Assembly: GCA_903922605.1 (NCBI GenBank) | Contig: CAIXUG010000072.1 | Coordinates: forward strand, 73,432-137,431 | Direction of reading: 5' to 3' | Source: an uncultured Verrucomicrobiota bacterium | GTDB lineage: Bacteria; Verrucomicrobiota; Verrucomicrobiia; Limisphaerales; UBA9464 | DNA: 64,000 nt | In this document: piece by piece, positions 19,438-60,338 of the stretch | Position numbering within the stretch: the first letter of the stretch is position 1 | Layout: the number at the start of each line of letters is the position of its first letter | Notes under the pieces: model-generated | Databases searched by the model: none | What the model saw: the letters and a program-made list of their open reading frames with translations, nothing else | Told to the model about the DNA's origin: nothing | Translations under genes and position numbers: made by a program

Positions 19438-20496
19438 TTATTCCAAGTCCTTGGCGCGAATCCGCCACACGGTCCCGATCTTCTTGGCCTTGATTTCGCC
19501 ATTGTTGATGGCGCTCATGAGGTCGGCTTCCGTGATCTTGAGCTTGGAGGCGGCCTCGGTCGGGGTCAGCCATTCCACCTCGCCCTTGTCGGCGGCTTCC
19601 GTCTTGCCAGGTTTTTCGGAGGCGGGTGCGGCGGGTCGGTCGTTGCCCTTGGAGGGAGGAGCGGCAGCGGCTCCGGGTGCGGGGGCCGCCGGTGCGGCTT
19701 GTGGTGCCTGCGGTGGTGCGGCAGCAACGGCCGGAGTCCCGGGCGGCTGAAGGAAGAGGCCGGCCACATTGGTCGCCGTATTGGTTTTTGCCTTGTTGCC
19801 CACCATTCCGCCAATGGTCCCACCGAGTTCTTTCAGGCTGCTAAAAATGCTCGCCGTGGTGGCGCTGTCGTGTTCGGCCTTGTTTTTTTTCAGGACTTCC
19901 ACCTGGGCGTCTGCGGCCACTTTGGCCGCCTGCTGTTTCGCATCGCCCTCCACCGGCAGATCGGCCTGCTCGGAGCGCAGGTAGCCCAGCTTTTCCTGGG
20001 TCAGTGACTTGATCGCCCCAAAGGAGCCGTCGGGGCGGACGCTGAAGCTGTCGTGGATGGTGGGGATGGCGTCACCCTTGTCATATTTCCTGGCCAAATA
20101 GCGGGAACTCAGGTTGTCGGTCTGGAGCTGCTTGCCCACCTCGCCAGGCAGTGGCTTCCCGGCGGACATCAGGTCGCGGACCGTGTAGCGCGGTTCGTCG
20201 CATTCCAGTTCCAGCGTAAACTCGACCAGGGCGCTTTTGTCCGGTCGGGTCCGCAGCTTGGGCTCCGTTTCTTTCGTCGCGGTGAGGCCTTTGGGGATGC
20301 TTTCCGTGATATGTTTGCTGGCGCTCGCAACAATGGCCGCCTCGTTGGCCGTGGGCGATTCGCCCGTGACGCCCAGCGGGATCGCGGCGGCCAGCAGGGT
20401 CAGGCAGAGCAAGTGGCCCAGAGTCCGCCCGGTATGATGGCAGGGAGCAAAGTTCAATTCACCGCCGCGCCGTTGCGGTGCATTTTTAATGGACAT
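19438..20496 (-). CDS. Hypothetical membrane-anchored protein with Pro/Ala-rich linker and C-terminal excisionase-type helix-turn-helix
   Basis: N-terminal hydrophobic segment LGHLLCLTLLAAAIPLGV. Linker AVAAAPPQAPQAAPAAPAPGAAAAPP. C-terminus WLTPTEAASKLKITEADLMSAINNGEIKAKKIGTVWRIRAKDLE. Confidence 0.65.
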   Translation of the reverse strand: MSIKNAPQRRGGELNFAPCHHTGRTLGHLLCLTLLAAAIPLGVTGESPTANEAAIVASASKHITESIPKGLTATKETEPKLRTRPDKSALVEFTLELECDEPRYTVRDLMSAGKPLPGEVGKQLQTDNLSSRYLARKYDKGDAIPTIHDSFSVRPDGSFGAIKSLTQEKLGYLRSEQADLPVEGDAKQQAAKVAADAQVEVLKKNKAEHDSATTASIFSSLKELGGTIGGMVGNKAKTNTATNVAGLFLQPPGTPAVAAAPPQAPQAAPAAPAPGAAAAPPSKGNDRPAAPASEKPGKTEAADKGEVEWLTPTEAASKLKITEADLMSAINNGEIKAKKIGTVWRIRAKDLE

Positions 20497-20607: not shown

Positions 20608-22212
20608 TCACGGCCCCAAGCCGGCGGCGGCCTGGCGGAACCGGGTCGTGAGGAGGGATTTGGCCCAGCGCAATCGCCACCCGTTCAGCCCCAGTTGAAG
20701 GAATATCGTGGGCAGAAAACTCAGTTGGGCGACGACCACCATGCTCGCCGAGGCCGCGAACCGGACCAACAGCAGGGCCGCCAATCCCCCGCCTATGGAG
20801 GCTCCCACCGCGATGGCGATTTCGCTGCCGAAGGTTTTCACCAGGGCAATCTCCGTCCGCCGGCTCGAGATGCCGTACCACATCGCGGACCACGTGAAAG
20901 CCACCCAGTCCAATACGTTGCTGAGATTCTCGCCGAGCGTCGAAAGCACGATGGTCTGGCGGGTTCCAGGGGGGACCGTTGCCGACAGGGTCATGAGCGT
21001 GTGCGCCATCCCCAGAACGCTGAAGAGGACATCGAGCCCGGCCAGCCAGAACACCACGCGGCGCATGGCCCGCCACAGCAGCCGGACCAGTTCGCCGTCC
21101 CCGAGCCGGGTCGTGAGCAGGATCTCCATCTCGCCGCTGTGCCGGGCATCGGCGAAGACGCGCGTGGCGAGGTAGGCAAACAGCAGCAGCCGGGCCAGCC
21201 CGGCCATTCCGGCCAGCACGCTGGTCGAGCTCAGGGCGATGCCTCCCGACGTGGTGATGTTCAGTGAAACCCATTGCAGCACCGCGCTGAAGTGGCCGAG
21301 ACAGGTCAGCAGGACCAACCCGGCCAACCAGCGGCCCAGATGGATGCGTGCCGCCAGGGTCTGGGCGATCACTTCGCCGAAGTCGGTCCGGACCTTTCCC
21401 GACCGGCGCCGCTTCGGTGCGGTGTGGGACGCGGATTCGTCCCGTCGCCATATTCCGCGCAGACGTCGCGCGGCGTCGGCCACGAGCAGTCCGGCCAGGG
21501 CCAGCTGCGCGGCGAGACTCCACCAATAGCGTGCGGCGTCGACCCGCTGGCTCACATCGTCGGCCAGCGTGATCCCCGCGATCGGGCTGAAGAGCGCCAC
21601 GGTGGCGTCAGTCATGTGGAAGGTGCCGGTGCGCGCCTGCCAGCCGGCGTCGAGGGCGAGCGGCAGGGCCGTGGCTCCCATCAGCAGGGCCGTCGCCGTC
21701 GCGATGGCCACCATGCCGTCGCGGCAGCGCACCGAGGCCCATGCCCCGCAGGCCAGGGAGACCGCGAGCGCCGACAGGAGGGCCAGAATGCAGCGGAAGA
21801 ACTGCCCGCCGGTCACGCCGCCGAACAGGATGGCGAGCCCCGTAATGGGCAGGGTGGCCAGCAGCGTGTACAGCGTGGTGACCGCCGCCCCGGACAGTTT
21901 GCCGAGCAGCACGTCCAGGCTGCTGAGGTCGGTCAGGAACAGGAAGCCCAGCGTGCCCTCGCGCCGCTCCTGGCTGATCCCGCCCGCCGCCATCCGCAAC
22001 CCTTCGACCAGGACATAAACCAGCAGCAGGATGATGAGGCCCATCAGTTCCGCGCCAATCGGCCCCCCTCCCATACGGCGGGACATGGCCGCGACCAGCA
22101 AGGCCAGGCCGACGATCAGGGTGACCGCTCCGGCGGCAGCCGCCCGGACGTAGAACGTCGAAGTAAGACGCGAACGGACCGACAGTTCACGAATGACGAC
22201 GGGAAGCAGCAT
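20608..22212 (-). CDS. Polytopic membrane protein, ABC-2-permease-like N-terminal half
   Basis: 534 aa with at least 10 hydrophobic segments. The N-terminus MLLPVVIRELSVRSRLTSTFYVRAAAAG resembles ABC-2-type permeases. No ATPase gene is adjacent. Confidence 0.55.
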   Translation of the reverse strand: MLLPVVIRELSVRSRLTSTFYVRAAAAGAVTLIVGLALLVAAMSRRMGGGPIGAELMGLIILLLVYVLVEGLRMAAGGISQERREGTLGFLFLTDLSSLDVLLGKLSGAAVTTLYTLLATLPITGLAILFGGVTGGQFFRCILALLSALAVSLACGAWASVRCRDGMVAIATATALLMGATALPLALDAGWQARTGTFHMTDATVALFSPIAGITLADDVSQRVDAARYWWSLAAQLALAGLLVADAARRLRGIWRRDESASHTAPKRRRSGKVRTDFGEVIAQTLAARIHLGRWLAGLVLLTCLGHFSAVLQWVSLNITTSGGIALSSTSVLAGMAGLARLLLFAYLATRVFADARHSGEMEILLTTRLGDGELVRLLWRAMRRVVFWLAGLDVLFSVLGMAHTLMTLSATVPPGTRQTIVLSTLGENLSNVLDWVAFTWSAMWYGISSRRTEIALVKTFGSEIAIAVGASIGGGLAALLLVRFAASASMVVVAQLSFLPTIFLQLGLNGWRLRWAKSLLTTRFRQAAAGLGP

Positions 22213-22407
22213 GGCCGAAGACTTTCGGGAATCGGTGCCGCAGGCAAGCGGGGTGACACGACATCCAGGGGCCGATCGCCGTTTACGATGTAAGGGCTCT
22301 CCTGTTGCGCTGGTGGGGCAAAGCTGCCGCTTTACCCGCTATTCAGCCGCCCTGCGTGCGCAGCGATGCAGGCGGCTGGCGTTCCCGGCTAAGTCCAAGT
22401 TGCGAAA

Positions 22408-22860
22408 TCAATTCAATTCAAGTGCCGGAAGCCGATCAGATACGTCATAAAGGCGCGCAAAATTGACTCTGCTGATGTAATGGAAACTTTGTGGAGGCCG
22501 GAATCCTCCGCGTCGCTTACGAAGTGCAGGCAGCGGGATAGGTATGGGTAGTCTCCAAGCGCGTCTTATCACAATCGCATGGGCCATCATTTTGCCCGAA
22601 AAATACTGCCTGAACTCTGCGTAGGAAATTCCGGTTTTCTCTCCTAGTGCTCTCCACAACATCTGGGGTGCAGCGGAAATCACCTCTTCGACTTCAAACG
22701 CTCCTTGAAGCTCTTTGGTGGGCGAGGAAACATAAACAAATGCCAAATCCCCTGAAGTCACTCGCGGCTTTACCCGGCGAAGCTCAACGGTTTTTTTTCC
22801 CGCGAAAATCTTCGCCGCAAACTGTGGGCGAATCGAAATCAAGAGCGCGTGCTGACTCAT
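22408..22860 (-). CDS. Stand-alone ASCH-domain (PUA-like fold) protein
   Basis: 150 aa. MSQHALLISIRPQFAAKIFAGKKTVELRRV...AFVYVSSPTKELQGAFEV is typical ASCH. The ATG at 22860 overlaps the upstream stop (ATGA). Confidence 0.8.
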   Translation of the reverse strand: MSQHALLISIRPQFAAKIFAGKKTVELRRVKPRVTSGDLAFVYVSSPTKELQGAFEVEEVISAAPQMLWRALGEKTGISYAEFRQYFSGKMMAHAIVIRRAWRLPIPIPLPALRKRRGGFRPPQSFHYISRVNFARLYDVSDRLPALELN

Positions 22861-24968
22861 TGACGAGAATGGTTCATTCCAAGTTGGTAGATGGCAACGA
22901 ATTGGTCGTTCGTGATTCTTCGTGGATTGACGGGCTGTGGCACAGCCAACTCTTTTATCTCGGCAAGCGAGACGGGTCGAGCAAATCGCTCGGTTCTGGA
23001 AAAACGGAATGCCAGGAGAGTTGCATCCAAATCGTTTTTGGCCCGCGCAAAGACATCCTTCCATTCGAAAACCCCAAGATGGCGGAACTTCCGATACAGT
23101 TCCTTGGGTTTCCCCACGACGATCTCCGCGAGATGCGAACACGCCTTGACTTCCATGGCCCCTCTGCCGGACGGGCCTTGACTTACATACCAGAGAATTC
23201 TGGCCGGTGCACGGAGGTGCCTATTCTTCCCAGAACAGTAATAGGCACCTTCGATACCTAGATGGAGTCTTTCCTTCAAATCCATCCATAATTGGCCACC
23301 TGTCGGAGCGTCAAAAAAATGTTCCGCCCAATCGGGGAAGATGGGCACAACGAAACTAGGCAAGTTGATGTCGACAATCTTCACCGGCGCGAGAGATTGC
23401 TCGCAACGTATTGCCAAATCCGGGTGCGAAGTCGCAGCCAAAACGCAAGACGCTAATTGTCCTTTGAGAGAAGGCGGAAGTCCGGACGAGCATACTGCAT
23501 CCGTTGCTTCTTTTATGTTCACCACCCCGGCCAAACTGAGTTTCCACCAAGCTTCCCCATCAGTAAGAAAACCTAGTTCCTGCATCGCGGAGGTCGCCAC
23601 TTCGGAAACACCTTTGTCAGAAACAGAGAGCAAGTTGCTTGTTCCTTGGGCCGTATCCAGCACAGCCGCATGAAGCATGTGCCGGATCAAAGTACCGGCG
23701 AGGGGATGGTTGGAATGACGCAAAAATGCGATTTCAAGGGCTGCATCACCGGTTCTTGTTTGAACAAGCAAAACGGCCAGGGCATATGTGTCGTCAACAG
23801 CCAAGCGACATGCCGACGTGTCGGGGTGAGCAAGGTGGTGCCGGAGCCTAGATTCAAATTCGTGCAACCGCTCCGAACGTGTCTGGTGAAACACTTCGCA
23901 CAAATGCGGAATGTCTGCCTCGGTAACTAGCCTTTCTCGCCAACGTGAACCTTCCAATCGGACGGGCCGGTATTCGGCCTCCCGACGTAGATTGTCGAAA
24001 CGAACAATCAAGTCGGTCGGATGAAGAATGCGCAGGCCGTATCGTTCGAAGATGCGATCAGCGTGGCTTAGCATTCCGGCGTCCCGGGTTACAAGAAAAG
24101 CGACTTCGGCGGCTATGGCGTGGGCAACCTGCCGCATGTCGGACCTATCGCGGTCGCAGATCGCGTTATTGAACAGAGGCTTTAACTCAGCTTCTATCAG
24201 CTTGGTCCTGCTCTCATCAGTCTTGAGTTCTCGGAATCCTTGGGCAGCGCCTCGAGAACGCTGTTGATCGGATGCCGAATCGGCCCGATGAATCTCATTG
24301 AACAGCTCTGGCGTGATGCATAGTTCAAGGCAGCCATCGAGCCAGTCCGCTTCCAACATTCGCGTATCCTCTCCGTGTGGGCGGCCATCGACCGTCAGAT
24401 CGTAGAAAACATTGGCATCAATGGCGACAGTGACCCGTTGACTGGCTTCTTCGCGAGTGGCAGCAATCGAAAAGAGGTCTTCATGGTTATGGCCGAACCA
24501 CCACAAATCAAGAAGCGCTCCATCTGCACCACGACCAGTTTTCGTATTTCTAACCGTAAACCCAAACTTCGACCACATACCTTCCAGCCGGTAGTCACGA
24601 CGACAATTCAGACTGATTCCCAAAAGATGCGAAGTATCGCCTTTCAAGCGATCAATCAGTAACTGTGCAACGCCAGTGCCTCGGAACTGTTCCGCGCTGG
24701 TAAGGTGTGTAATGGCCGCCCGGCGCTTCGCGACTCGGTAAAGTAGATATCCAGCCAGAGAGCCGTCTGGCGCTAAAGCGACAAGAATATGATTGAGCTT
24801 AGCGCGCTCCTCAAAAGCTCCGGTAGGTAACGGCCCTAGACGGGCTTTTGAAACTGCGTGAAGCGCCAATACTCCTTTCAGCAACGGAGAGTCGGCTCCA
24901 ATACACTCCACCTTGAAAGGAATTGGAATTTCCTGAGCTATCGGCTGGGCGGGATTGACTTTACTCAC
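22857..24968 (-). CDS. Multidomain GNAT acetyltransferase - PIN nuclease - GNAT-like - ASCH-like protein
   Basis: 703 aa. GNAT motif A is R96-G-T-G-V-A101. PIN acidic residues are D184 (VAIDANVF), E215/E221, D277 and D296 (LVTRDAG). The C-terminal 160 aa resemble the downstream ASCH protein. Confidence 0.8.
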   Translation of the reverse strand: MSKVNPAQPIAQEIPIPFKVECIGADSPLLKGVLALHAVSKARLGPLPTGAFEERAKLNHILVALAPDGSLAGYLLYRVAKRRAAITHLTSAEQFRGTGVAQLLIDRLKGDTSHLLGISLNCRRDYRLEGMWSKFGFTVRNTKTGRGADGALLDLWWFGHNHEDLFSIAATREEASQRVTVAIDANVFYDLTVDGRPHGEDTRMLEADWLDGCLELCITPELFNEIHRADSASDQQRSRGAAQGFRELKTDESRTKLIEAELKPLFNNAICDRDRSDMRQVAHAIAAEVAFLVTRDAGMLSHADRIFERYGLRILHPTDLIVRFDNLRREAEYRPVRLEGSRWRERLVTEADIPHLCEVFHQTRSERLHEFESRLRHHLAHPDTSACRLAVDDTYALAVLLVQTRTGDAALEIAFLRHSNHPLAGTLIRHMLHAAVLDTAQGTSNLLSVSDKGVSEVATSAMQELGFLTDGEAWWKLSLAGVVNIKEATDAVCSSGLPPSLKGQLASCVLAATSHPDLAIRCEQSLAPVKIVDINLPSFVVPIFPDWAEHFFDAPTGGQLWMDLKERLHLGIEGAYYCSGKNRHLRAPARILWYVSQGPSGRGAMEVKACSHLAEIVVGKPKELYRKFRHLGVFEWKDVFARAKNDLDATLLAFRFSRTERFARPVSLAEIKELAVPQPVNPRRITNDQFVAIYQLGMNHSRQ

Positions 24969-25313
24969 AGCAAGGCTGAGGTGTGTGTATCTGGCCTATT
25001 TGTGCCTAATGTAAACTCAAATGCCAAGATGTTTGAATTTGCCCGGTTCACTCTTCCGGACCGCCTATAGTGCGATTGTCTGGCCATCCTAGCTTGAAGG
25101 CAATGTGGTTGCCTACTACTTGGGACTGGTTCATTTCTTTGGAGGTTAGTGAACAGAAACTCTGCCTCTGGCGAGGGTTTGAGAACGACATATGTTGCAA
25201 TTAACAAAAAAGACCTATTTTGCTGCGTGCTCAGCACTCCCGCTCCGTGCTCGCAAAGACTTGGAGCGGATTCTTGATGGCAGGTCATGGGCCGGTCGCT
25301 ACGCTGGTCACTC

Positions 25314-25610
25314 ATGAACTGGCACATTGTCGTCTGGATCTACATCGCGCTGCTCGAGGTCGGCGGCCTCATCGGCCTCCTGAAGGCGGGCAGCAAGGCT
25401 TCGATCATCGCCTCGACCATTTTTGCGGTACCGTTGGTTCTTGGGCTGGTTTTGGCGTGGCCGATCAACGTGATGTTGATCGTGTTGGGCGTTCACTTCC
25501 TCTACTTCGCGGTCAGTTTCGCCCGGAAAAAGAAATTCATGCCCGGTGGCCTGATGGCGATTGCGTCGCTGGGAGCCGGCCTGTTCGTGTACTTTACCGC
25601 TTACCGCTGA
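25314..25610 (+). CDS. Small TMEM14-family (UPF0136-like) membrane protein
   Basis: MNWHIVVWIYIALLEVGGLIGLLKAGSKASIIAS with four hydrophobic helices. The ORF track start is 25287. Confidence 0.65.
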   Translation: MNWHIVVWIYIALLEVGGLIGLLKAGSKASIIASTIFAVPLVLGLVLAWPINVMLIVLGVHFLYFAVSFARKKKFMPGGLMAIASLGAGLFVYFTAYR

Positions 25611-25617
25611 TCGACCG

Positions 25618-25638
25618 GCGGCGGTCATAGACCGCCGC
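25618..25638 (+). terminator. Hairpin after the TMEM14-like gene
   Basis: Perfect 9-bp stem GCGGCGGTC/GACCGCCGC with loop ATA. No U-tract. Confidence 0.35.
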
Positions 25639-25667
25639 TAGAGGCAGAGTCCAGTTTTCAAAGGAAC

Positions 25668-28400
25668 ATGGCGAACCAAGGTCTGCCGGTCTGGCTGCTT
25701 CAGGCCGACATCCTCCGCACGCTGACGGCGGGCAACCAACTCGTGCTGGTCGCTGCCACCGGCTCCGGCAAAACCACGCAGGTGCCCCAGATGCTCCTGG
25801 ATGCCGGGCTGGCCGGCGCCAAGCGCATCGTGGTGCTCCAGCCGCGTCGCGTGGCCGCCCGGACCGTGGCCGCCCGGGTCGCCTGGGAGCGGAAAGGCCG
25901 GCTGGGGGATGAGGTCGGCTATCAGGTGCGCTTTGAGGACCATCTCTCCGAGGCTTCGCGCCTGTGTTTTGTCACCGAGGGCATCCTGTTGCGCTGGTTG
26001 CAGAACGACCACGAACTGAGCGACATCGGTGTGGTGATCTTCGACGAATTCCACGAGCGGAACCTGCTGAGCGACGTTGCCCTCGCGCTGGTGAAACGGC
26101 TCCAGCAGACCACGCGGCCCGACCTGAAGATCGTGGTGATGTCGGCCACGCTGGAGGCCGAGCCGGTGGCGCGTTACCTGGCGGCTGGGCCTTCTCATGC
26201 TCTTGCTCCTGCTCTTGCTCTTGATCTTCCTCCTAGTCTGCCGGACGCCGTCGAGAGTAAGAGCACGAGCAAGAGCATGAGCAAGATGGGGGCTGAGCCG
26301 GAGGCCTGCCCGGTGCTTGTGTCCGAGGGGCGGACCTACCCGGTGTCGTTGAACTGGTCCCAGTACGGTGACGACCGGCCAGCTTCGGAACGGGCGGCGG
26401 AGGCAGTGGAGCGGCTCGTCCGTAACGGCGAACTGGGTGACATCCTCGTGTTCATGCCCGGCATGGGTGAGATCAACGCCACCATCAACGCGCTGCGGGC
26501 CGCGCGACTGGACGAGCGTTGCACCTTCATCCCGCTGCACGGCGATCTGGCACCGGACGACCAGGATCGGGCCTTCCAGCCGAGCGACGTGCGCAAGATC
26601 GTCGTGGCCACCAACGTGGCCGAGACCAGCGTCACCATCGACGGGGTCTGCCACGTGGTAGATGCCGGCTTGGCGCGTATTGCCCGTTACGATGCCGAGC
26701 GCGGCATCCAGACCTTGGCGGTGGAGGAAATCAGCCGCGCCAGTGCGGACCAGCGCGCCGGCCGGGCCGGGCGTACGGCACCGGGAACCTGCTGGCGCTT
26801 GTGGACGGAAAGCAACCACCTGAACCGTCCGGCCCGGAATACGCCAGAAATCCGCCGGGCGGACCTGGCCGAAACGGTCTTGCTGCTTCACTCATTGGGC
26901 ATCCGGCGGGCGGCGGAATTCGACTGGCTGGACCGGCCCGATACCGAAGCCGTGGAGCGCGCCGAACGCCTGCTGACCACCCTCGGTGCGTTGGTGCCGG
27001 TGGAGCAGGGCGGGGGATTGGCCGAGACCGGGTCGGACCTGACTCCCGTTGGCCGCCAGATGCTGCGTCTGCCGATGCACCCACGTTATTCGCGCATGCT
27101 GATCGAGGCGTCGCGTCGCGGGTGTGTGCCGGCGGCGGCGCAATGCGCGGCGCTGGTCAGCGGGCGCGACCTGCTCATGCGGGTGGGCCGCGATGATGGC
27201 CAGATGAAGGAGGCCCGGGAGACCTTTGAAGGCAGCACGCAGAGCGATTTTCACACGCTGATGCGGGCGCACCAGTTCGCGAAGCAGAGCCAGTTTGACC
27301 TGAATGCCTGCCGCCGCATGGGCATCCATGCGCAGACCGCCCGGCAGGTGGAGGACACCTTCCGCCAACTGCTCCAGATCGCCGAACGCGAACGGCTGCT
27401 GGAGGACGAGGAGGAGGGCGCAAAATCACCTGCCATTGGCAACCCGACCGATCCCGATGCGCTGGCGAAGTGCCTGCTCGCCGGCTTCATCGATCAGCTG
27501 GCCGCCCGCAAGGACACCGGCACCTTGGATTGCCTGCTCACCGAGAGCCGTACCGGCGCGCTGGTCCGGGAGAGTGTGGTCAGCACGCCCTTGTTGGTGG
27601 TCGCCAGCATTCGCGAGGTGGAGGGCCGGGGCGGTCGCATGACCTTGCTCAGCTTGGCCACGGCGGTGAAGCGCGAGTGGATCACGGAAATCTTTCCACA
27701 ACACCTCCAGTCGACGGTGGAGCATCTATTCGACCGCACGCATAAGCGCGTCGCGGCGATCCGGCAGGTGCGCTGCCTCGGGCTGGTCATCGGGCAGGAA
27801 CACCAGCGCGAAACCGATCCGGAAGCGGCGGGACGCACTTTGGCGGAAGCCTTTGCCAAGGGCTGGTTTGAGCTGCCCAACCTCACGCACGACGTGAAGC
27901 AGTTCATCGCCCGGGTGAACCTCGTCTGCGCCGCGCTGCCAGAACTGGATTTTCCGCGCTTCGACAGCCCGGCCCTGCTGGCGGCGCTGACCCGCGCCTT
28001 TACGGGCTTTACCCTGGTCAAGGAGGCGCAGGCCGCCGAACTGCGGCCCCATTTCCGGGCGCATCTCGTACCCGAAGAGCGGGGCTGGCTGGATGAGCTG
28101 CTGCCCCTGTCGATCCCGTGGCCGGATGGCCGCACGGTGAAGCTCACCTATCCCGAGCCGGGCCGCGATGCGGAGGATGGTCCCGCCTGGCCCACCGCCC
28201 AGGTAAAGCTGAACGATTGCTGGGCGCTCAAAGCGCATCCGGTCCTGGGCGAGGGCAAAGTGCCGGTGCGACTCTGCCTCCAGGCGCCCGATGGCAAGCG
28301 CCTGGATGCCACCACCGACTTTCCGGCCTGGAAAACAGCCGGTTACCCCAAGCTGAGGGCGGCCATCAAGGCGAAGTACGCGGGCTTTGCCTGGCCGTAA
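25668..28400 (+). CDS. hrpB: ATP-dependent DEAH-box RNA helicase HrpB (carries a 36-codon repeat-derived insertion)
   Basis: GSGKTTQVPQ, DEFHERN, MSATL, and TNVAETSVTIDGV. 910 aa. Confidence 0.9.
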   Translation: MANQGLPVWLLQADILRTLTAGNQLVLVAATGSGKTTQVPQMLLDAGLAGAKRIVVLQPRRVAARTVAARVAWERKGRLGDEVGYQVRFEDHLSEASRLCFVTEGILLRWLQNDHELSDIGVVIFDEFHERNLLSDVALALVKRLQQTTRPDLKIVVMSATLEAEPVARYLAAGPSHALAPALALDLPPSLPDAVESKSTSKSMSKMGAEPEACPVLVSEGRTYPVSLNWSQYGDDRPASERAAEAVERLVRNGELGDILVFMPGMGEINATINALRAARLDERCTFIPLHGDLAPDDQDRAFQPSDVRKIVVATNVAETSVTIDGVCHVVDAGLARIARYDAERGIQTLAVEEISRASADQRAGRAGRTAPGTCWRLWTESNHLNRPARNTPEIRRADLAETVLLLHSLGIRRAAEFDWLDRPDTEAVERAERLLTTLGALVPVEQGGGLAETGSDLTPVGRQMLRLPMHPRYSRMLIEASRRGCVPAAAQCAALVSGRDLLMRVGRDDGQMKEARETFEGSTQSDFHTLMRAHQFAKQSQFDLNACRRMGIHAQTARQVEDTFRQLLQIAERERLLEDEEEGAKSPAIGNPTDPDALAKCLLAGFIDQLAARKDTGTLDCLLTESRTGALVRESVVSTPLLVVASIREVEGRGGRMTLLSLATAVKREWITEIFPQHLQSTVEHLFDRTHKRVAAIRQVRCLGLVIGQEHQRETDPEAAGRTLAEAFAKGWFELPNLTHDVKQFIARVNLVCAALPELDFPRFDSPALLAALTRAFTGFTLVKEAQAAELRPHFRAHLVPEERGWLDELLPLSIPWPDGRTVKLTYPEPGRDAEDGPAWPTAQVKLNDCWALKAHPVLGEGKVPVRLCLQAPDGKRLDATTDFPAWKTAGYPKLRAAIKAKYAGFAWP
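26192..26299. repeat. Hexamer-periodic palindromic element, copy B, inserted in frame within hrpB
   Basis: Arms at 26194-26221 and 26253-26281 pair 26/28. The unit is 108 bp, flanked by GGCTGGGCC (26183-26191) and GGCTGAGCC (26291-26299). Confidence 0.65.
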
Positions 28401-55422: not shown

Positions 55423-57543
55423 TTAGCCTTTCGCGAAAATTGGCGCGATTATTTCAAGATCAGCATGGAAGAATTCAGCAAACGATGACTTAAATTCTTT
55501 GGCGGAGATTGGTGGCAAGAGTGACCTGCCTAATGCGATAAAAAGTTCGCCAGCGATTATTTTTTGGTTCGCCACCAACAGTTGTTCAGCCAAAAAAGAA
55601 CGAGTCTGCATGCTTGCCAATTGTCCCCATTCGGCTCGATGCACAAGTCGCAAAAGCGCTGCTCGGATTAATCCTTCGGTATACCGATCTTTAACATTTT
55701 CAGGGCTCATCACATTGCTGACTGGAAAACGAGGATGGAGTTGCTTTTTAAGGTATTTATCATTTCGCTGAGCTTGCAGAGCACTAGCTAATGCAAACAT
55801 CACAACCATCGAAGACGATTCGCCTGAGCAAATCGGAGATTGGTCACCCAACACAACAGATGACACACCTGGCAGCAAGAGAATAGGTTCATCACTAATG
55901 CCCTCAGTGCGGTTACGCAACTTCGCTAGTCGCGCGGTGAGCCATCTAGGGGGGCGCGCAAATCGTCTAGCGATACCAGAAATAAAGTCAAACTCGCGGC
56001 ACCACGGACACAACTCTTCGTTCCAATTAGGAAGGATAATCTCTTCGACAGCGTGGAAATGCCCTTTCCAATTATGGCCATCTGTTAGTGTTTTTGATAA
56101 CTCGGTAAGATGTTGAGGTGTGGACGGGCGGGCAAGTGCCACCAAGTAGCTGAGCATCTGGCATGACAGATAATGCCCCTCCCGCACAGATTGAATGTAC
56201 TGCCTGAGTCGGGAGCCTGAGTTTACAACATCATCGACGATTAGAATCTTTCTTGCATTTAGAACAATGCCAAGATCATTTACGGAAAGCGCATTCCTAT
56301 CCAATGTGTCGTGAATTATAACAGGGCAACCGAACACGGCTTTTGCTCTGTCCGCCATGTATTTTCCGGCCTCATGGTCCGGGGAAACTATAAGATCAAC
56401 ATTTCCTAGTAATGAAACTAGTTTCTCGTCGAAACGCTTGGCAAACTCTGGATGTGAAAATAGCGTAAACATATTGAGATCGAATGCATGATGGCGGCCA
56501 TCATTTCGATCGTCATGATGGACGATAAAAAGGTTTTTAGTGTCTCGATAGCGCTCAATAAATGGTTTTGCAGCTGCGAGATGTGATTTTGATAATAGCA
56601 CTTCCGGCTCGCTCAATGATTTCAAATGATAAGCTGCCGGGTCAATGTGAATAGGGATGCTTCCAGATGCGCATAGTTCGCAAGGATCTTGAAAGAATGT
56701 TTCGTGTGTGGGAATCCGGGCGAAGCAATTCAGCTGATTGGGAGTGCTCGCAAATCCATAAATGCTTAAACATTCAATGGTAAACCGGCCCGCTGCTCGT
56801 TCGTTGAACATTGTTTGGATATGCTCCACCAATCTGCCGCTGCCACTTATGCTTACGAAAGCCACAAGTCTTCCTCCGAGTGGCAATCGGGCAAGTAGGC
56901 CTTCTACAACTCTTTGGCATGCAATGCTATTATGTGCCGGGTGTTCGGGGAAGCAGTCAAATGGAATCTGAAGTCGGTTGATCTGAAGTGTTCGCAGTAT
57001 TGCAGAAGCGATGCTCCAACTGTCCACAAGGATTGCATCTGCTGTTCCGATATACGGTCGGAGCCAGAAGGCCATTTGATCCAAAGTGTGAAGATTATGA
57101 AGCAAATCGCCTATACGCATGAACCGCGAGGTATGAGTCAAGGAAGGGGTGACGAAATGGTAATTTGCGTGTGCTTCAAAGGCGCACGCTCCACCGTCCT
57201 CTTCTAGTAGTTGTAACAAGTCCGCCTTCCGCACCTTTGAAACGACCGGTTCGACTTCCAATTGTGAAAAACCTGCCGGGGCAATAAGATCAGCCTTAAT
57301 AGAAAATGAAGGGCCAGGTGTCAGGACAACAGTCGGCTTTTCGGCCGCATACTGAAGTAGAGGTTTTGCTGCAATAGCATCGAAGGCAATTGGTGTATTG
57401 CTAAGAAACGCAAGCGACGATGCTGCGCGAAACGTATCTGCGTTGAGTCGGCTGATTTTCTCTGCGACATCAGCAAGTGTGCTCTCCTCCCGCAGATAAA
57501 AGACTCGAGGCGAATCGAGTGAGTTGGTGTTCCATTGAGGCAT
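55423..57543 (-). CDS. Tandem phosphoribosyltransferase (PRTase)-like protein with C-terminal helical domain
   Basis: 706 aa. Canonical PRPP loop KILIVDDVVNSGSRL (aa 432-446, nt 56206-56250). Degenerate N-terminal copy RLVAFVSISGSGRLV (aa 225-239). CxxC after each module (C288/C291 and C512/C515). Confidence 0.8.
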   Translation of the reverse strand: MPQWNTNSLDSPRVFYLREESTLADVAEKISRLNADTFRAASSLAFLSNTPIAFDAIAAKPLLQYAAEKPTVVLTPGPSFSIKADLIAPAGFSQLEVEPVVSKVRKADLLQLLEEDGGACAFEAHANYHFVTPSLTHTSRFMRIGDLLHNLHTLDQMAFWLRPYIGTADAILVDSWSIASAILRTLQINRLQIPFDCFPEHPAHNSIACQRVVEGLLARLPLGGRLVAFVSISGSGRLVEHIQTMFNERAAGRFTIECLSIYGFASTPNQLNCFARIPTHETFFQDPCELCASGSIPIHIDPAAYHLKSLSEPEVLLSKSHLAAAKPFIERYRDTKNLFIVHHDDRNDGRHHAFDLNMFTLFSHPEFAKRFDEKLVSLLGNVDLIVSPDHEAGKYMADRAKAVFGCPVIIHDTLDRNALSVNDLGIVLNARKILIVDDVVNSGSRLRQYIQSVREGHYLSCQMLSYLVALARPSTPQHLTELSKTLTDGHNWKGHFHAVEEIILPNWNEELCPWCREFDFISGIARRFARPPRWLTARLAKLRNRTEGISDEPILLLPGVSSVVLGDQSPICSGESSSMVVMFALASALQAQRNDKYLKKQLHPRFPVSNVMSPENVKDRYTEGLIRAALLRLVHRAEWGQLASMQTRSFLAEQLLVANQKIIAGELFIALGRSLLPPISAKEFKSSFAEFFHADLEIIAPIFAKG

Positions 57544-58661
57544 TACAATCCCAGGTTCAGCACCTCTTGATCAGGATTCTCATTGGAAACGGGCCAAAAA
57601 ACTGAAATCGCAGTTCCTTGAAGGCCCGTCGGAATCTCAATCCTTGACCAAACTGATTGGCCTTCCTTTGTCTCATTAAACGCAGCCTGACCGGCGGAGT
57701 TTACAAAGATGCAGGCCTGTAAACGAGCGGCAGCGTCCAGTATATTTGCCAACCCTTGCCCTCGATTTGGGCTACCACTTCGTGGCTTGCGACTCGTGCC
57801 CCGTTCGAATGCCCTCATGAGTCGAGACCATTCCGACTCATCGCCCGACGGCAGGAGTGTATTTTGAATGCCCTGGCCATAATCAGCTACAGTGGCACAG
57901 AGCCAGAGCGAATTGCGTCGTTGAAATCGTGGTTCAATAAAGCTTCTTAGAAACGCCGGTATCTGGTTTCGTTGCGATAAGTTATCGAACGATTGAAGCA
58001 CGAGTTTTTCGACCGACACACCCCAAATTCCTTGATATTCAGGAATTGCGTGTTCAATCGAATTTCGAAAAGCCTCGAATAGAAATCCAGAGATCGCTGC
58101 TTCGGTCAGTGAGCCAAAAAACCTTTTCCCAGCACCAAGACCTTCACCAATATTGCCAAGTGCCGATTCAAATTCTCTGCGGCTAGGAAGTTTATTTGTT
58201 TCCGAAGAACGAACCAGTTCAGGAATAGGTGAATCAAATTCGCGAGAGATTAGATTCTGACTTTTCCCATCACCGACGATGCCTCCTGTCTTTAATAAAA
58301 TCTGTCGCCACATGCAATCAAAGGCATTGGCGGATAAATCTCTGCTATTCGCATCAACTACCGTATCTGCTGCCTCAAGAAGAGCTACTCCAATTAGAGT
58401 CAAGAAAAAATCAGGCCATTCTTTCATTGACATGGTGTGAATCTCCCCACGCGGAAAGGGAAATTCGCAACGAATGATTACGGCTGATGCTTTGGAACGA
58501 ACTCGACGCACAGCAGAAATTGCAATGCCTGTTGTGAGCAGTCTGAAACCTGACTCACGCGTTATTTGGAATTCAACTTCGTCACCGGGCTGGCAATCCC
58601 ATCTAGCGACATCTTCAATGGACGCCCACTCTTGTATCCGAAATTGTAATGTCTTAGCCAT
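57543..58661 (-). CDS. GHKL / histidine-kinase-like ATPase-fold protein with unassigned N-terminal domain
   Basis: From ATG 58661 (372 aa): N-box EAFRNSIEHA (196-205), G1 DYGQGI (260-265), G2 GQGLANI (301-307), and GTAISVFWP. The stop overlaps the downstream start (TAATG). The ORF track extends to 58844. Confidence 0.75.
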   Translation of the reverse strand: MAKTLQFRIQEWASIEDVARWDCQPGDEVEFQITRESGFRLLTTGIAISAVRRVRSKASAVIIRCEFPFPRGEIHTMSMKEWPDFFLTLIGVALLEAADTVVDANSRDLSANAFDCMWRQILLKTGGIVGDGKSQNLISREFDSPIPELVRSSETNKLPSRREFESALGNIGEGLGAGKRFFGSLTEAAISGFLFEAFRNSIEHAIPEYQGIWGVSVEKLVLQSFDNLSQRNQIPAFLRSFIEPRFQRRNSLWLCATVADYGQGIQNTLLPSGDESEWSRLMRAFERGTSRKPRSGSPNRGQGLANILDAAARLQACIFVNSAGQAAFNETKEGQSVWSRIEIPTGLQGTAISVFWPVSNENPDQEVLNLGL

Positions 58662-59075
58662 CTGCTTCTCGGGGGAGGGAATTACATCGTTTCGTGTTTG
58701 CGCGCAAGGTATTGGGTGTTTGTCTGTGCTTTTCGGGGAAATCTTTCGATTCTTGCTGTAATTCTTCGATACCGCTATCTTGGAATTGACGTCGGCGCCA
58801 GCTTTCCTACCGGGTAGACCGGCTCTGTACTGCAGCGCCGGCATTGCGCGACAACATTTCTTTGAGCGTACTGCCGGATCTTCTTCCTTTGTTCCTTAGT
58901 CGTTTTATCCGCGGCTTGCGTTTTCTCTCGCCTTGAGCCAAGCTAATGTTTGCTTGCCGGGAGCATCCTGTCCGCGGAAATGGGCCCAGCCCACCGGTCT
59001 GTTACGAAACATCAGAAACCTGACTTTCTGGCCCAGAGTTGGCGGACACACGGGCGCAATTAAGAAAGTAAGGTT

Positions 59076-60338
59076 ATGGCGACTGTATCCCGGGACCTGC
59101 CTGCCAGGCCCCATATCGATGTTCCGAAACGGGAGGCCCGCGCATTGCTGAAGGCGTGGCGGGACAAATCCTCCGAAGCGCTGGAGCGGATTCGCCGGCG
59201 GCATCCCCGATTCCACGACGCGGATGAGACGGCGATTTCGTCCGCAAAGTTCCTCCTGAATGACGCCCAGCTGGTCCTCGCGCGGGAGTACGGATTTTCC
59301 AACTGGGCGCAACTGAAGGAGCGGATCGACGCGAACACCGTGACGGGCCTGCTGCTGACGGCCATTCGGGACGACGATCGGGAGACGACGGTGAGACTGC
59401 TCCGGGCGCATCCGGAGCTGTTGCACGTCCCACTCTGGAGTGGGAACTGGGGGCCGCCCATGAGCCACGCGGCGAATCTCGGGAGGCTGGAAATTATTCA
59501 GGCGGTGGCCGCCCTTGGGGCGCGGGACTATCAGCACGCCTTTGGTCGGGCGCTCTTGCAGGGCAAACTGGAAACCGCCCGCTGGCTGCACGGGCACGGT
59601 GCGAAATTGGAACCCGGAATCGTGATGGGCGCCTGCGAGTGCCTGAATCCGGCCGGGCTCGGCTTCCTGGCCGATCTGGGCGCGCCCTTCACGGATGACC
59701 AGGGGGACCGGCTGGCACCGCTGGGGTTGGTGCTGGAAACGTACGGACGAAATCCGGTGGGAAAACATGCCGTGCTGAAGCTCTTTGCAGGGCAGGGGTA
59801 CACGTTTCCGGATACGCCGATGATGGCGTTCCATCGCGGCGATCAGGAGCGGCTCAAGGACTTTTTGCGGCGCGACCCCGGCCTGTTGGAACGACGCTTC
59901 AGTCTCCTCGAAATTTATCCGCCCGAGCTCGGTTGCGCGAAGGATGGCCGGTCTGGGATGCACTGGACCCCGATCGGTTGCACGACGCTGCTGCACCTGG
60001 CAATCGACTTCGATGACGCGGAAGTTTTCGACCTGCTGCTGGCTCACGGAGCCGATGTGAATGCGCGGGCGCTCGTGGATGCGGACGGTTTTGGCGGTCA
60101 CACGCCCCTCTTCAACGCCGTCGTGAGTCACGGGGCGCACCAGGGGGCGATGGCCCGCAGGCTGGTGGCGCACGGAGCCTCGGCGACGGTGCGCGCGTCC
60201 CTGCGCAAGTTCCTGGACTGGTGTGAGACGCCGCGCTGGCACGAGGCCCGGGAAGTGACGCCGGCGGAGTGGGGGCGGAGCTTTCCGGATCAGGGCTGGG
60301 TGAATGCGGAAGCGTTGCAAGCAGCCGGGAGCCCATAA
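59076..60338 (+). CDS. Ankyrin-repeat protein
   Basis: TLLHLAIDFDDAEVFDLLLAHGADVNARA...GHTPLFNAV and further ANK-like units. 420 aa. Confidence 0.8.
   Translation: MATVSRDLPARPHIDVPKREARALLKAWRDKSSEALERIRRRHPRFHDADETAISSAKFLLNDAQLVLAREYGFSNWAQLKERIDANTVTGLLLTAIRDDDRETTVRLLRAHPELLHVPLWSGNWGPPMSHAANLGRLEIIQAVAALGARDYQHAFGRALLQGKLETARWLHGHGAKLEPGIVMGACECLNPAGLGFLADLGAPFTDDQGDRLAPLGLVLETYGRNPVGKHAVLKLFAGQGYTFPDTPMMAFHRGDQERLKDFLRRDPGLLERRFSLLEIYPPELGCAKDGRSGMHWTPIGCTTLLHLAIDFDDAEVFDLLLAHGADVNARALVDADGFGGHTPLFNAVVSHGAHQGAMARRLVAHGASATVRASLRKFLDWCETPRWHEAREVTPAEWGRSFPDQGWVNAEALQAAGSP

Follow-up and report, generated by a model that had tools for sequence, protein, structure and literature searches.

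Iyer et al. (2013), as relayed by Matelska et al. (2017) and by Bell et al. (2020), reported operons that encode a PIN-GNAT-PUA/EVE protein together with an ASCH protein, and Bell et al. also cite from that work a proposal that the class acetylates DNA bases. In the survey of Matelska et al. (2017; PIN_15/PIN_17), a GNAT-like domain devoid of motif A always lies between a PIN domain on its N-terminal side and a PUA-like domain on its C-terminal side, and a further gene of the operon always encodes a second PUA copy. Bell, Wolf and Koonin (2020) reported (PIN)-GNAT-EVE operons, which often include an AAA_17 ATPase, and found PIN-GNAT-EVE frequently adjoining restriction-modification (RM) systems of type I; none of these modules had been characterized. 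One published objection is that the GNAT of the class lacks the acetyl-CoA motif and is probably inactive. In PADLOC the class is listed as PDC-M11, and the PDC-M systems are multi-gene candidates for phage defense that were picked because they sit within loci of BREX, DISARM, or type I RM (Payne et al., 2024, preprint). Systems of this kind are thus already known from comparative genomics and from a PADLOC candidate listing. Here, we analyzed a window of 64,000 nt of DNA from an uncultured Verrucomicrobiota bacterium (contig CAIXUG010000072.1), to the whole length of which all position numbers refer. On its minus strand the window carries what appears to be a distant relative of this class, namely a gene for a 703-residue protein with the domain order GNAT, PIN, GNAT-like, PUA-like (the large gene and protein), which overlaps a downstream gene for a 150-residue ASCH protein (the small gene and protein).

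The small protein matched the PADLOC model PDC-M11B with an E-value of 9.5e-31, and in a direct hmmscan the C-terminal domain of the large protein matched PDC-M11A, in the C-terminal part of the model, with an E-value of 9.6e-15. An earlier sequence-only reading of this DNA knew of no named toxin-antitoxin (TA) or defense family with such an architecture; the view that there is none is wrong, since the class was described between 2013 and 2020 and is PDC-M11 in PADLOC. As the direct search reached the C-terminal domain only, the window protein is a distant member. The comparison was extended with a 493-residue protein from a Rhodococcus ruber plasmid, which matches PDC-M11A over its full length (E 2.7e-152) and has a PDC-M11B partner. 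In hhalign, residues 173-691 of our family alignment corresponded to residues 7-487 of this protein, with a probability of 97.9% and an E-value of 3.1e-13 over 461 columns. The PIN regions were aligned with each other, and the N-terminal GNAT was missing from the Rhodococcus protein. As judged from these alignments, residues ~173-703 together with the small gene appear to form a distant but complete PDC-M11 unit, to which the first ~170 residues, a canonical GNAT, look like an addition.

The likeness to the described class covers the order of PIN, GNAT-like domain without motif A, and PUA-like domain, the second ASCH gene in the operon, the patchy distribution, and, in many relatives of the window pair, closeness to restriction and other defense genes. 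In contrast to the class, the clade of the window protein constantly carries a canonical GNAT of ~170 residues with an intact motif A before the PIN domain, and the beta4-alpha3 (motif-A) loop of its internal GNAT is five residues shorter than in the PDC-M11A protein. Its C-terminal domain is nearer to ZmASCH, the ASCH protein of Zymomonas (ZMO0922), than to EVE proteins, and the AAA_17 ATPase of some classical operons was not seen in the contexts of the window clade that were examined. The clade is centered on Verrucomicrobiota, Planctomycetota, and Cyanobacteria, and in the cyanobacteria McrBC genes follow the pair. What is new is this large and widespread clade with an extra, intact-looking GNAT constantly fused ahead of PIN, the further degeneration of its internal GNAT, the four-gene cassette with McrBC in cyanobacteria, and the finding that the model of the PDC-M11B partner family also matches ZmASCH itself (E 5e-29). 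The positions of the features are collected in Table 1.

Table 1. Positions of the gene pair, its predicted domains, and the surrounding features in the 64,000-nt window.
Feature	Position	Strand	Size or residues	Basis and remarks
Large gene	22857..24968	-	703 aa	GTG start; open reading frame (ORF) list and ENA source contig ERZ27313340
Small gene	22408..22860	-	150 aa	Counted from the ATG of the ATGA overlap
ATGA stop/start overlap of both genes	22857..22860	-		Sequence
N-terminal canonical GNAT (predicted)	24459..24968	-	Residues 1-170	PDB profile matches, motif A conservation
PIN_3 nuclease domain (predicted)	23979..24446	-	Residues 175-330	Pfam PF13470; D184, E221, D277, T294, D296
Internal degenerate GNAT fold (predicted)	23385..23963	-	Residues 336-528	AlphaFold and Foldseek
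C-terminal PUA-like (ZmASCH-type) domain (predicted)	22860..23384	-	Residues 529-703	AlphaFold, Foldseek, hhalign, PADLOC
Low-GC islet	~22350..25650		~3.3 kb	GC 0.50-0.57 vs 0.65-0.72 in flanks; composition profiles
Tmemb_14 ORF	25287..25610	+		Pfam; divergent from the large gene
hrpB (helicase HrpB), flank	25668..28400	+
ABC-2-like membrane protein, flank	20608..22212	-
352-aa ORF	19438..20496	-	352 aa	Low-complexity Ala/Pro-rich middle; C-terminal HTH_17 (excisionase/MerR-like), E 9.5e-9

Residue conservation in the large protein was counted in an alignment of 155 homologues. Pfam gave GNAT matches at residues 59-140 that stayed below threshold, and the profile of residues 17-170 matched many solved GNATs in PDB (best E-value 1.7e-6), the best of them being of the AAC(3)-I, Ard1/Naa, RimI, and YpeA types. 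No toxin structure of the TacT/AtaT type was present among the best 60 PDB matches of this profile. The acetyl-CoA motif that the sequence-only reading had picked out, R96-G-T-G99-V-A101 (pattern R96-x-x-G99-x-A101), was conserved, with R96 in 127 homologues and Gln at this position in 11 more, G99 in 147, and A101 in 134 with Gly in 6. Y74, W132, and F137 were found in all 155 sequences, and H88, C122, and R123 in 154 each. The PIN_3 domain (PF13470) matched residues 181-296 above its gathering score with an E-value of 9e-9. Its acidic positions had been given as D184, E215 or E221, D277, and D296; D184 (155/155), E221 (154/155), D277 (143/155), and D296 (141/155) were conserved, while E215 was poorly kept (77/155) and drops out of this set. 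Both the PIN active site and the GNAT cofactor motif are under purifying selection.

Domains of these two types also occur in well-known toxins. The GNAT toxins TacT, AtaT, ItaT, and KacT likewise have an acetyl-CoA motif and belong to two-gene modules on mobile DNA, and aminoacyl-tRNA, their kind of target, is plausible here too. Those proteins, however, are stand-alone toxins of ~160-180 residues with an upstream antitoxin of the ribbon-helix-helix (RHH)/DUF1778 type, whereas the GNAT of the window is the first of four domains and its sole partner is an ASCH gene downstream. With the VapC toxins (PIN_3), the window protein shares an above-threshold PIN_3 match, the four conserved acidic residues, and a conserved Thr before the last Asp. 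In VapBC systems the toxin consists of one domain only, and its DNA-binding antitoxin VapB is encoded upstream; the window PIN, in contrast, lies inside a 703-residue protein, and there is no VapB-like gene at the locus.

Sequence searches of PDB with the whole large protein and with profiles of its middle and C-terminal domains gave nothing significant, so that structure prediction and Foldseek were needed for this half of the protein. The AlphaFold model of residues 336-528 had a predicted local distance difference test (pLDDT) score of 92.2, and its top PDB matches were all GNATs with E-values of about 1e-6, among them SpeG (7kwj, E 1.4e-6) and RimJ/RimL. The suggestion that a second GNAT-like region without motif A follows the PIN domain was borne out by this fold and by the alignment, in which HPLAxT stands in the pyrophosphate-binding loop in place of Q/R-x-x-G-x-G/A. 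We considered the two GNAT folds as recent duplicates of each other and rejected this, because hhalign gave no significant similarity between the internal region and the N-terminal GNAT (E 0.12).

The model of residues 524-703 (pLDDT 80) had the Zymomonas ASCH structure 5GUQ as its top Foldseek match, with an E-value of 2.8e-8 and a TM score of 0.75-0.80. The next matches were the McrB N-domain 6n0s, an EVE protein, the TRIP4 ASCH domain bound to double-stranded DNA, and, weakly, YqfB. In hhalign, the C-terminal domain matched the small-protein family with a probability of 90.5% and an E-value of 1.4e-6 over 132 columns. These results agree with the resemblance to the small ASCH protein that had been noticed by eye in the letters, and the domain is a paralogue of that family. 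The same alignment placed a 17-residue insertion of the domain exactly at the position of the ASCH octapeptide of the small protein, and the ASCH Lys/Glu dyad was absent, with a hydrophobic position in place of Lys and the invariant Y576 in place of Glu. A548, F552, Y576, W593, Y594, and S611 were present in 155/155 homologues, followed by D553 (154), R590 (152), W547 (151), and Y577 (150).

The small protein matched the Pfam ASCH family (PF04266) with 27.5 bits against a cut-off of 21.2; a Pfam check of the PIN and ASCH calls had been set beforehand, and PIN_3 and the small ASCH were both above their cut-offs. It aligned over its full length with ZmASCH (PDB 5GUS/5GUQ, E 2e-17), and its Y43, K49, and S125 corresponded to Y47, K53, and S128 of ZmASCH, respectively. 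The octapeptide GxKxxExR is formed by G21, K23, E26, and R28, which is the GKER type of ASCH. Conservation was counted in 120 homologues of the small protein: K23, E26, R28, and R29 were present in every one, and Y43, Y86, and a PPQ motif were also invariant or nearly so. The Lys/Glu dyad is kept only in the free-standing small ASCH, not in the PUA-like paralogue within the large protein.

ZmASCH is a Mg-dependent nuclease of single-stranded RNA that binds both single-stranded RNA and single-stranded DNA, and its Y47, K53, and S128 matter for nucleic-acid binding and cleavage (PMC5615036). Furthermore, 19 ASCH proteins including ZmASCH were reported in a preprint to remove N4-acetylcytidine (ac4C) from tRNA in vitro, the Lys/Glu dyad being essential for the deacetylation in the members tested (bioRxiv 10.64898/2026.02.27.708502). 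The small protein is like ZmASCH in the full-length alignment and the octapeptide, and the ZmASCH fold recurs in the C-terminal domain of the large protein. The differences are that this C-terminal copy lacks the dyad and that ZmASCH was studied in isolation, outside the context of an operon, whereas the window protein is known from its sequence.

For the distribution, one genome per species was scanned for 185,579 species, and a confirmed relative of the large protein was found in 183 of these genomes, with 31-57% full-length identity to the window protein. Among the hosts are Verrucomicrobiota, Planctomycetota, many Cyanobacteria, Chloroflexota, Desulfobacterota, Gammaproteobacteria, Elusimicrobia, Acidobacteriota, and one Thermoplasmata archaeon. 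The first search had given 115 homologue clusters of the large protein, of ~695 residues. When the C-terminal domain was used as a profile, 1,480 representatives (clustered at 50%) matched, 849 of them with E-values of at most 1e-30, and the best 150 matches were almost all proteins of ~700 residues or fragments thereof. No relative turned up when 2.9 million viral contigs were scanned with the family alignment, and the idea of a phage-borne module was dropped on this ground.

Loci were counted among the best 80 of the genome scan, which come from more than 10 phyla. The small gene lay directly downstream of the large gene and on the same strand in 78 of them, so that the check on co-occurrence across genomes came out in favor of a pair. 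As for the two exceptions, one contig ends 41 nt past the match, and the other locus has a truncated large gene. Of 77 loci, 72 had a distance of between -11 and +37 nt from the stop of the large gene to the start of the small gene, and in 11 it was -4 nt (ATGA). As the data as a whole show, the pair is inherited jointly, is tightly coupled, and is mobile. The notion of a toxin/immunity or defense-type module, which the sequence-only reading had raised, fits the 78/80 pairing, the patchy spread over phyla, and the frequent defense-island or mobile context.

One apparent departure from the four-domain order was rejected. The 536-residue P0331 looked like a close relative without the N-terminal GNAT, and it is cut by a contig end; when the reading frame is followed upstream, the translation goes on and contains the GNAT motifs GIAR and CRRDF. 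Because this short form is an artefact of the contig end, the four-domain architecture is constant in the clade. A separate observation concerns P0113 (934 residues, on a 4.7-kb ENA contig), in which the GNAT-PIN part (~residues 1-325) is followed by a UvrD-like helicase with HRDC that stands in for the internal GNAT and the PUA domain. It may be a real domain swap or a chimeric contig, and we treated it as a possible chimera.

The large gene was interrupted or truncated in 9 of the 80 loci (L028, L041, L045, L055, L058, L064, L067, L074, and L077), and the small gene was intact in 8 of these 9. Given the lengths of the two genes, the bias toward the large one is not significant by our estimate (p ~0.2). 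These disruptions could reflect counter-selection of a toxic effector or errors of assembly and sequencing.

In 23 of the 80 loci, all or nearly all of them cyanobacterial, the pair was directly followed by McrB and McrC (L028-L031, L034, L035, L038-L040, L049, L051, L054, L058-L061, L063, L064, L067, L068, L071, L072, and L077; also L095, on a Calothrix plasmid). The four genes form a cassette on one strand, with a gap of ~80-290 nt between the pair and McrB, and the cyanobacterial cassette occurs at different genomic sites and on plasmids. Its McrB-like AAA_5 protein has ~520 residues, of which the N-terminal ~270 carry no Pfam domain, and this N-terminal region showed no relation to any of the five domain profiles of the pair. 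On the plasmid of Calothrix PCC 6303 the order is Dcm methylase, Eco29kI, the pair, McrB, McrC. On a Nostoc plasmid the pair adjoins a McrB-like ATPase and transposition genes. Cultured carriers of the pair include Calothrix PCC 6303 (plasmid pCAL6303.01; proteins WP_015173919.1 and WP_015173918.1), Nostoc CENA543, Scytonema HK-05, and Anabaena 4-3.

Apart from McrBC, 149 other immediate neighbors were tallied. They included HNH_5 (7), N6_Mtase (4), Eco57I (3), MmeI (2), integrases (4), PIN proteins (4), YhcG/PDC-S02 (3), PDDEXK_3 (3), Fic (2), and reverse transcriptases (2), the remainder being diverse. Of the two closest relatives of the window pair (68-70% identity), one has tyrosine integrases beside it, and the other is part of a conjugative element, with DUF3800 and Wadjet as neighbors. 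In other relatives, the pair is flanked by a reverse transcriptase/PLD operon and Wadjet, is carried by a conjugative element, or comes right after an Eco57I-type enzyme with GmrSD nearby. Adjacency to defense genes was thus seen, as simple neighbor counts, in many relatives.

The HNH_5 gene among these neighbors encodes ~260-300 residues and stands immediately upstream of the large gene in seven loci (L004, L017, L020, L022, L048, L057, and L075; also L084), whose hosts are Verrucomicrobiota, Planctomycetota, and Desulfobacterota. Where the spacing was measured, it was 30-170 nt from the large gene, in either orientation. HNH_5 may be a third component of a sub-variant of the system.

Classical plasmid operons with a GNAT-EVE gene and then an ASCH gene, with or without an ATPase, were seen in Vibrio, Paenibacillus, Rhizobium, and Pseudomonas. 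A Rhizobium plasmid has the order HTH-ASCH, PIN-GNAT-EVE, ATPase, next to two HNH endonucleases; in alphaproteobacterial relatives the gene for this fusion of a helix-turn-helix (HTH) domain with ASCH comes first, in the usual position of an antitoxin. A plasmid of Pseudomonas sp. CIP-10 (L085, 4377-7009) carries an AAA_17 ATPase, a GNAT-EVE protein (PDC-M11A, E 1.8e-137), an ASCH protein (PDC-M11B), and a separate canonical GNAT of 198 residues with the motif A-like sequence FQGSGAG. A stand-alone, active-looking GNAT may accordingly accompany the classical systems too. We also considered such a stand-alone gene as the source of the fused N-terminal GNAT; this origin was not supported, the similarity between the two being generic (E 0.0016, probability 16%).

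We read the pair as a horizontally mobile conflict module of the PDC-M11 class, either TA-like or anti-phage, and give this reading a blended probability of roughly 0.55 for class and mechanism together. Taken on its own, membership in the class with a role in conflict is highly probable, and the specific mechanism with writer, reader, eraser, and nuclease is tentative. In that mechanism, both proteins would be made together from one operon that the ATGA overlap suggests to be translationally coupled. The large protein would be the effector. Its PIN domain, with the catalytic acidic residues kept, probably cuts RNA, and its N-terminal GNAT, to go by the conserved motifs, probably acetylates a nucleic-acid-linked target from acetyl-CoA; the N4 of cytosine in RNA and the amino group of aminoacyl-tRNA are candidate sites. 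The internal GNAT fold may serve as a non-catalytic scaffold, and the C-terminal PUA-like domain, which lacks the dyad and has an invariant aromatic pocket, may act as a reader and place the effector on a base that carries an acetyl group or another modification. The small ASCH protein, which keeps the Lys/Glu dyad and the nucleic-acid cleft of ZmASCH, would restrain the effector in uninfected cells, either by removing the acetyl mark in the manner of the eraser DarG, by occupying the same ligand, or by binding the paralogous C-terminal domain. Phage infection or loss of the element would then upset the balance, so that acetylation and RNA cleavage are released and translation stops.

The idea of a GNAT writer, an ASCH eraser, and a PIN nuclease is strengthened by the invariant Lys23/Glu26 dyad of the small protein and by the reported deacetylation of tRNA ac4C by ASCH proteins; it is compatible with the data and is still an inference. 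DarTG is a conceptual analogue only, in that a writer toxin is paired with a partner whose conserved catalytic residues could erase the mark; the two systems have no relation in sequence or fold, and ADP-ribosylation with a macrodomain contrasts with what would be acetylation with an ASCH domain here.

Several points weigh against this reading. We found no experimental report in the literature for any member of the class. The PDC-M11A models match the window protein in its C-terminal domain only, and PADLOC would for that reason probably not call the locus. In the window, the pair is surrounded by housekeeping genes (hrpB, Tmemb_14, and the ABC-2-like membrane protein), so the defense adjacency of the relatives is not seen here, and two relatives, P0007 and P0037, likewise stand alone among housekeeping genes. 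Neither the TacT/AtaT-type toxins nor TmcA show a specific similarity to the N-terminal GNAT, whose best matches are aminoglycoside and N-alpha acetyltransferases. ZmASCH did not hydrolyze free ac4C and caused no drop of ac4C in vivo (bioRxiv 10.64898/2026.02.27.708502). The strongest point against a strict writer-eraser origin is that the classical members, whose large protein has no canonical GNAT motif A, always have an ASCH partner (Matelska et al., 2017), so that the role of ASCH is older than the fused writer and cannot have arisen as its eraser.

In a simpler explanation, the pair is a plain protein-protein TA system in which the PIN domain, the GNAT, or both are the toxin and the small ASCH protein neutralizes it by stoichiometric binding only, with neither erasing nor reading. 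Two tightly coupled genes in an operon are what such a system would look like, PIN and GNAT domains are common toxins (Bell et al., 2020; Matelska et al., 2017), and the paralogy of the C-terminal domain and the small protein means that they could pair. The HTH-ASCH fusion of the alphaproteobacteria, encoded first, resembles an autoregulating antitoxin, and the survival of the small gene in most loci with a damaged large gene points the same way, but the excess of large-gene disruptions loses its significance once gene length is considered. Pure binding also leaves the invariant catalytic and cleft residues of the small protein unexplained, and the frequent linkage to restriction systems points to the sensing of nucleic acid. 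We consider this explanation unlikely.

On the side of our own reading, the conflict module could also take a bolder form, namely a self-contained immune or addiction system built on an acetyl mark on nucleic acid: the GNAT would write the mark, the PUA-like domain would read it and recruit the PIN nuclease, and the small ASCH protein would erase it. The mark may be, e.g., N4-acetylcytosine in tRNA, in other RNA, or even in DNA, and in cyanobacteria it could also feed the adjacent McrBC. In this full form we hold the idea to be improbable.

Another explanation places the pair among modification-dependent sensor-nucleases similar to type IV restriction. Both PUA-like domains would then read a modified base or nucleotide, either a base on phage DNA or RNA or a nucleotide released in infection, and direct or activate the PIN nuclease; the GNAT would mark or inactivate a phage or host target, and McrBC would cooperate in cyanobacteria. 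In modification-dependent restriction enzymes, as in the N-domains of McrB, reading is usually done by PUA-like domains (EVE, SRA, YTH, and ASCH), and the Foldseek matches of the C-terminal domain to 6n0s and to DNA-bound TRIP4 are in line with this. So are the cassette with McrB and McrC in 23 loci and on two cyanobacterial plasmids, the definition of PDC-M11 by its embedding in RM, BREX, or DISARM loci, the DNA base acetylation proposal as cited in Bell et al. (2020), and the part of the literature in which a PUA domain is reported to sense m6-dAMP as a signal of infection. The McrB N-domains (EVE/YTH) and the PUA-HNH and PUA-PD-(D/E)XK proteins share with the window protein a PUA-like beta-barrel fused to a nuclease, with type IV restriction genes near. 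In the window protein, however, the nuclease is an RNase-type PIN rather than HNH or PD-(D/E)XK, two GNAT folds are present, and there is no DNA endonuclease domain; VapC-like PIN_3 proteins are typically classed as RNase toxins (Matelska et al., 2017). Furthermore, linkage to McrBC is limited to cyanobacteria and could be a matter of clustering in defense islands, the N-terminal region of that McrB is unrelated to the domains of the pair, and the window copy has no restriction neighbor. Hence, this explanation is distinctly unlikely.

That the pair has no role in conflict and serves housekeeping RNA modification or processing, e.g., a regulated acetylation and deacetylation with tRNA or rRNA trimming, would suit the classical tie of ASCH/PUA domains to RNA metabolism and translation, the deacetylation of tRNA ac4C by ASCH proteins, and the position of the window copy and some relatives among housekeeping genes, but it is very improbable given the rare and patchy occurrence of the pair (183/185,579 genomes), the low-GC islet of the window copy, the differing contexts of the closest relatives in integrative elements, plasmids, and defense islands, and the interrupted or truncated large gene in 9/80 loci.

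The gene calls of the window agreed with those of the ENA source contig, where the same 703-residue and 150-residue products are called, and both ORFs with their ATGA overlap were found where the sequence-only reading had placed them. The start of the large gene is uncertain between the GTG at 24968 and an in-frame GTG 19 codons downstream. The database record P0001 gives the same gene as a 500-residue product starting at an internal Met, and such a start would remove the GNAT and the first strand of the PIN domain. Automatic annotation is unreliable at the N-terminus in the large-protein family, as P0001 and P0331 exemplify.

The low-GC islet comprises the gene pair, a 318-bp upstream intergenic region (24969-25286) that is richer in AT, and the Tmemb_14 ORF. 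The ORF list gave no antitoxin ORF in this upstream region, and no McrB or McrC was present among the ORFs that flank the pair between 19.4 and 28.4 kb. An Rfam scan of 21.8-25.8 kb returned nothing at E-values up to 1, a scan for sigma-70 promoters found no site, and terminator-like sites occurred at chance level. A perfect 15-nt direct repeat, TCCTGTTGCGCTGGT, lies on either side of the islet (22300-22314 and 25984-25998). It was rejected as an attachment site, its second copy lying 316 nt inside hrpB and ~330 nt past the GC boundary. The 352-residue ORF with the HTH_17 domain stands two genes from the islet.

Another low-GC island was observed elsewhere in the window, at 55423-60320 on the minus strand (GC 0.48-0.56). 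It holds ORFs of 471, 433, and 706 residues on the same strand with a stop/start overlap at 57543, and none of the three had a Pfam match. The 706-residue protein matched the PADLOC candidate PDC-M65B with an E-value of 2.9e-19, and the island is probably another defense candidate.

Since 2013, three predictions have been made of the class of PIN-GNAT-PUA proteins with an ASCH partner, which PADLOC includes and which has been hard to interpret for more than 10 years. The intact-looking extra GNAT of the present clade and its dyad-bearing ASCH partner lead to an idea that is testable, namely that a PIN nuclease is coupled with an acetylation of nucleic acid that can be reversed. If this hypothesis fails, the pair would be one more accessory TA-like pair. 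If it is true, it would provide a new chemical principle for bacterial immunity and TA biology and a physiological context for ZmASCH, and the self-contained acetyl-mark form would be the first TA or defense system based on reversible nucleobase acetylation, the acetylation counterpart of DarTG.

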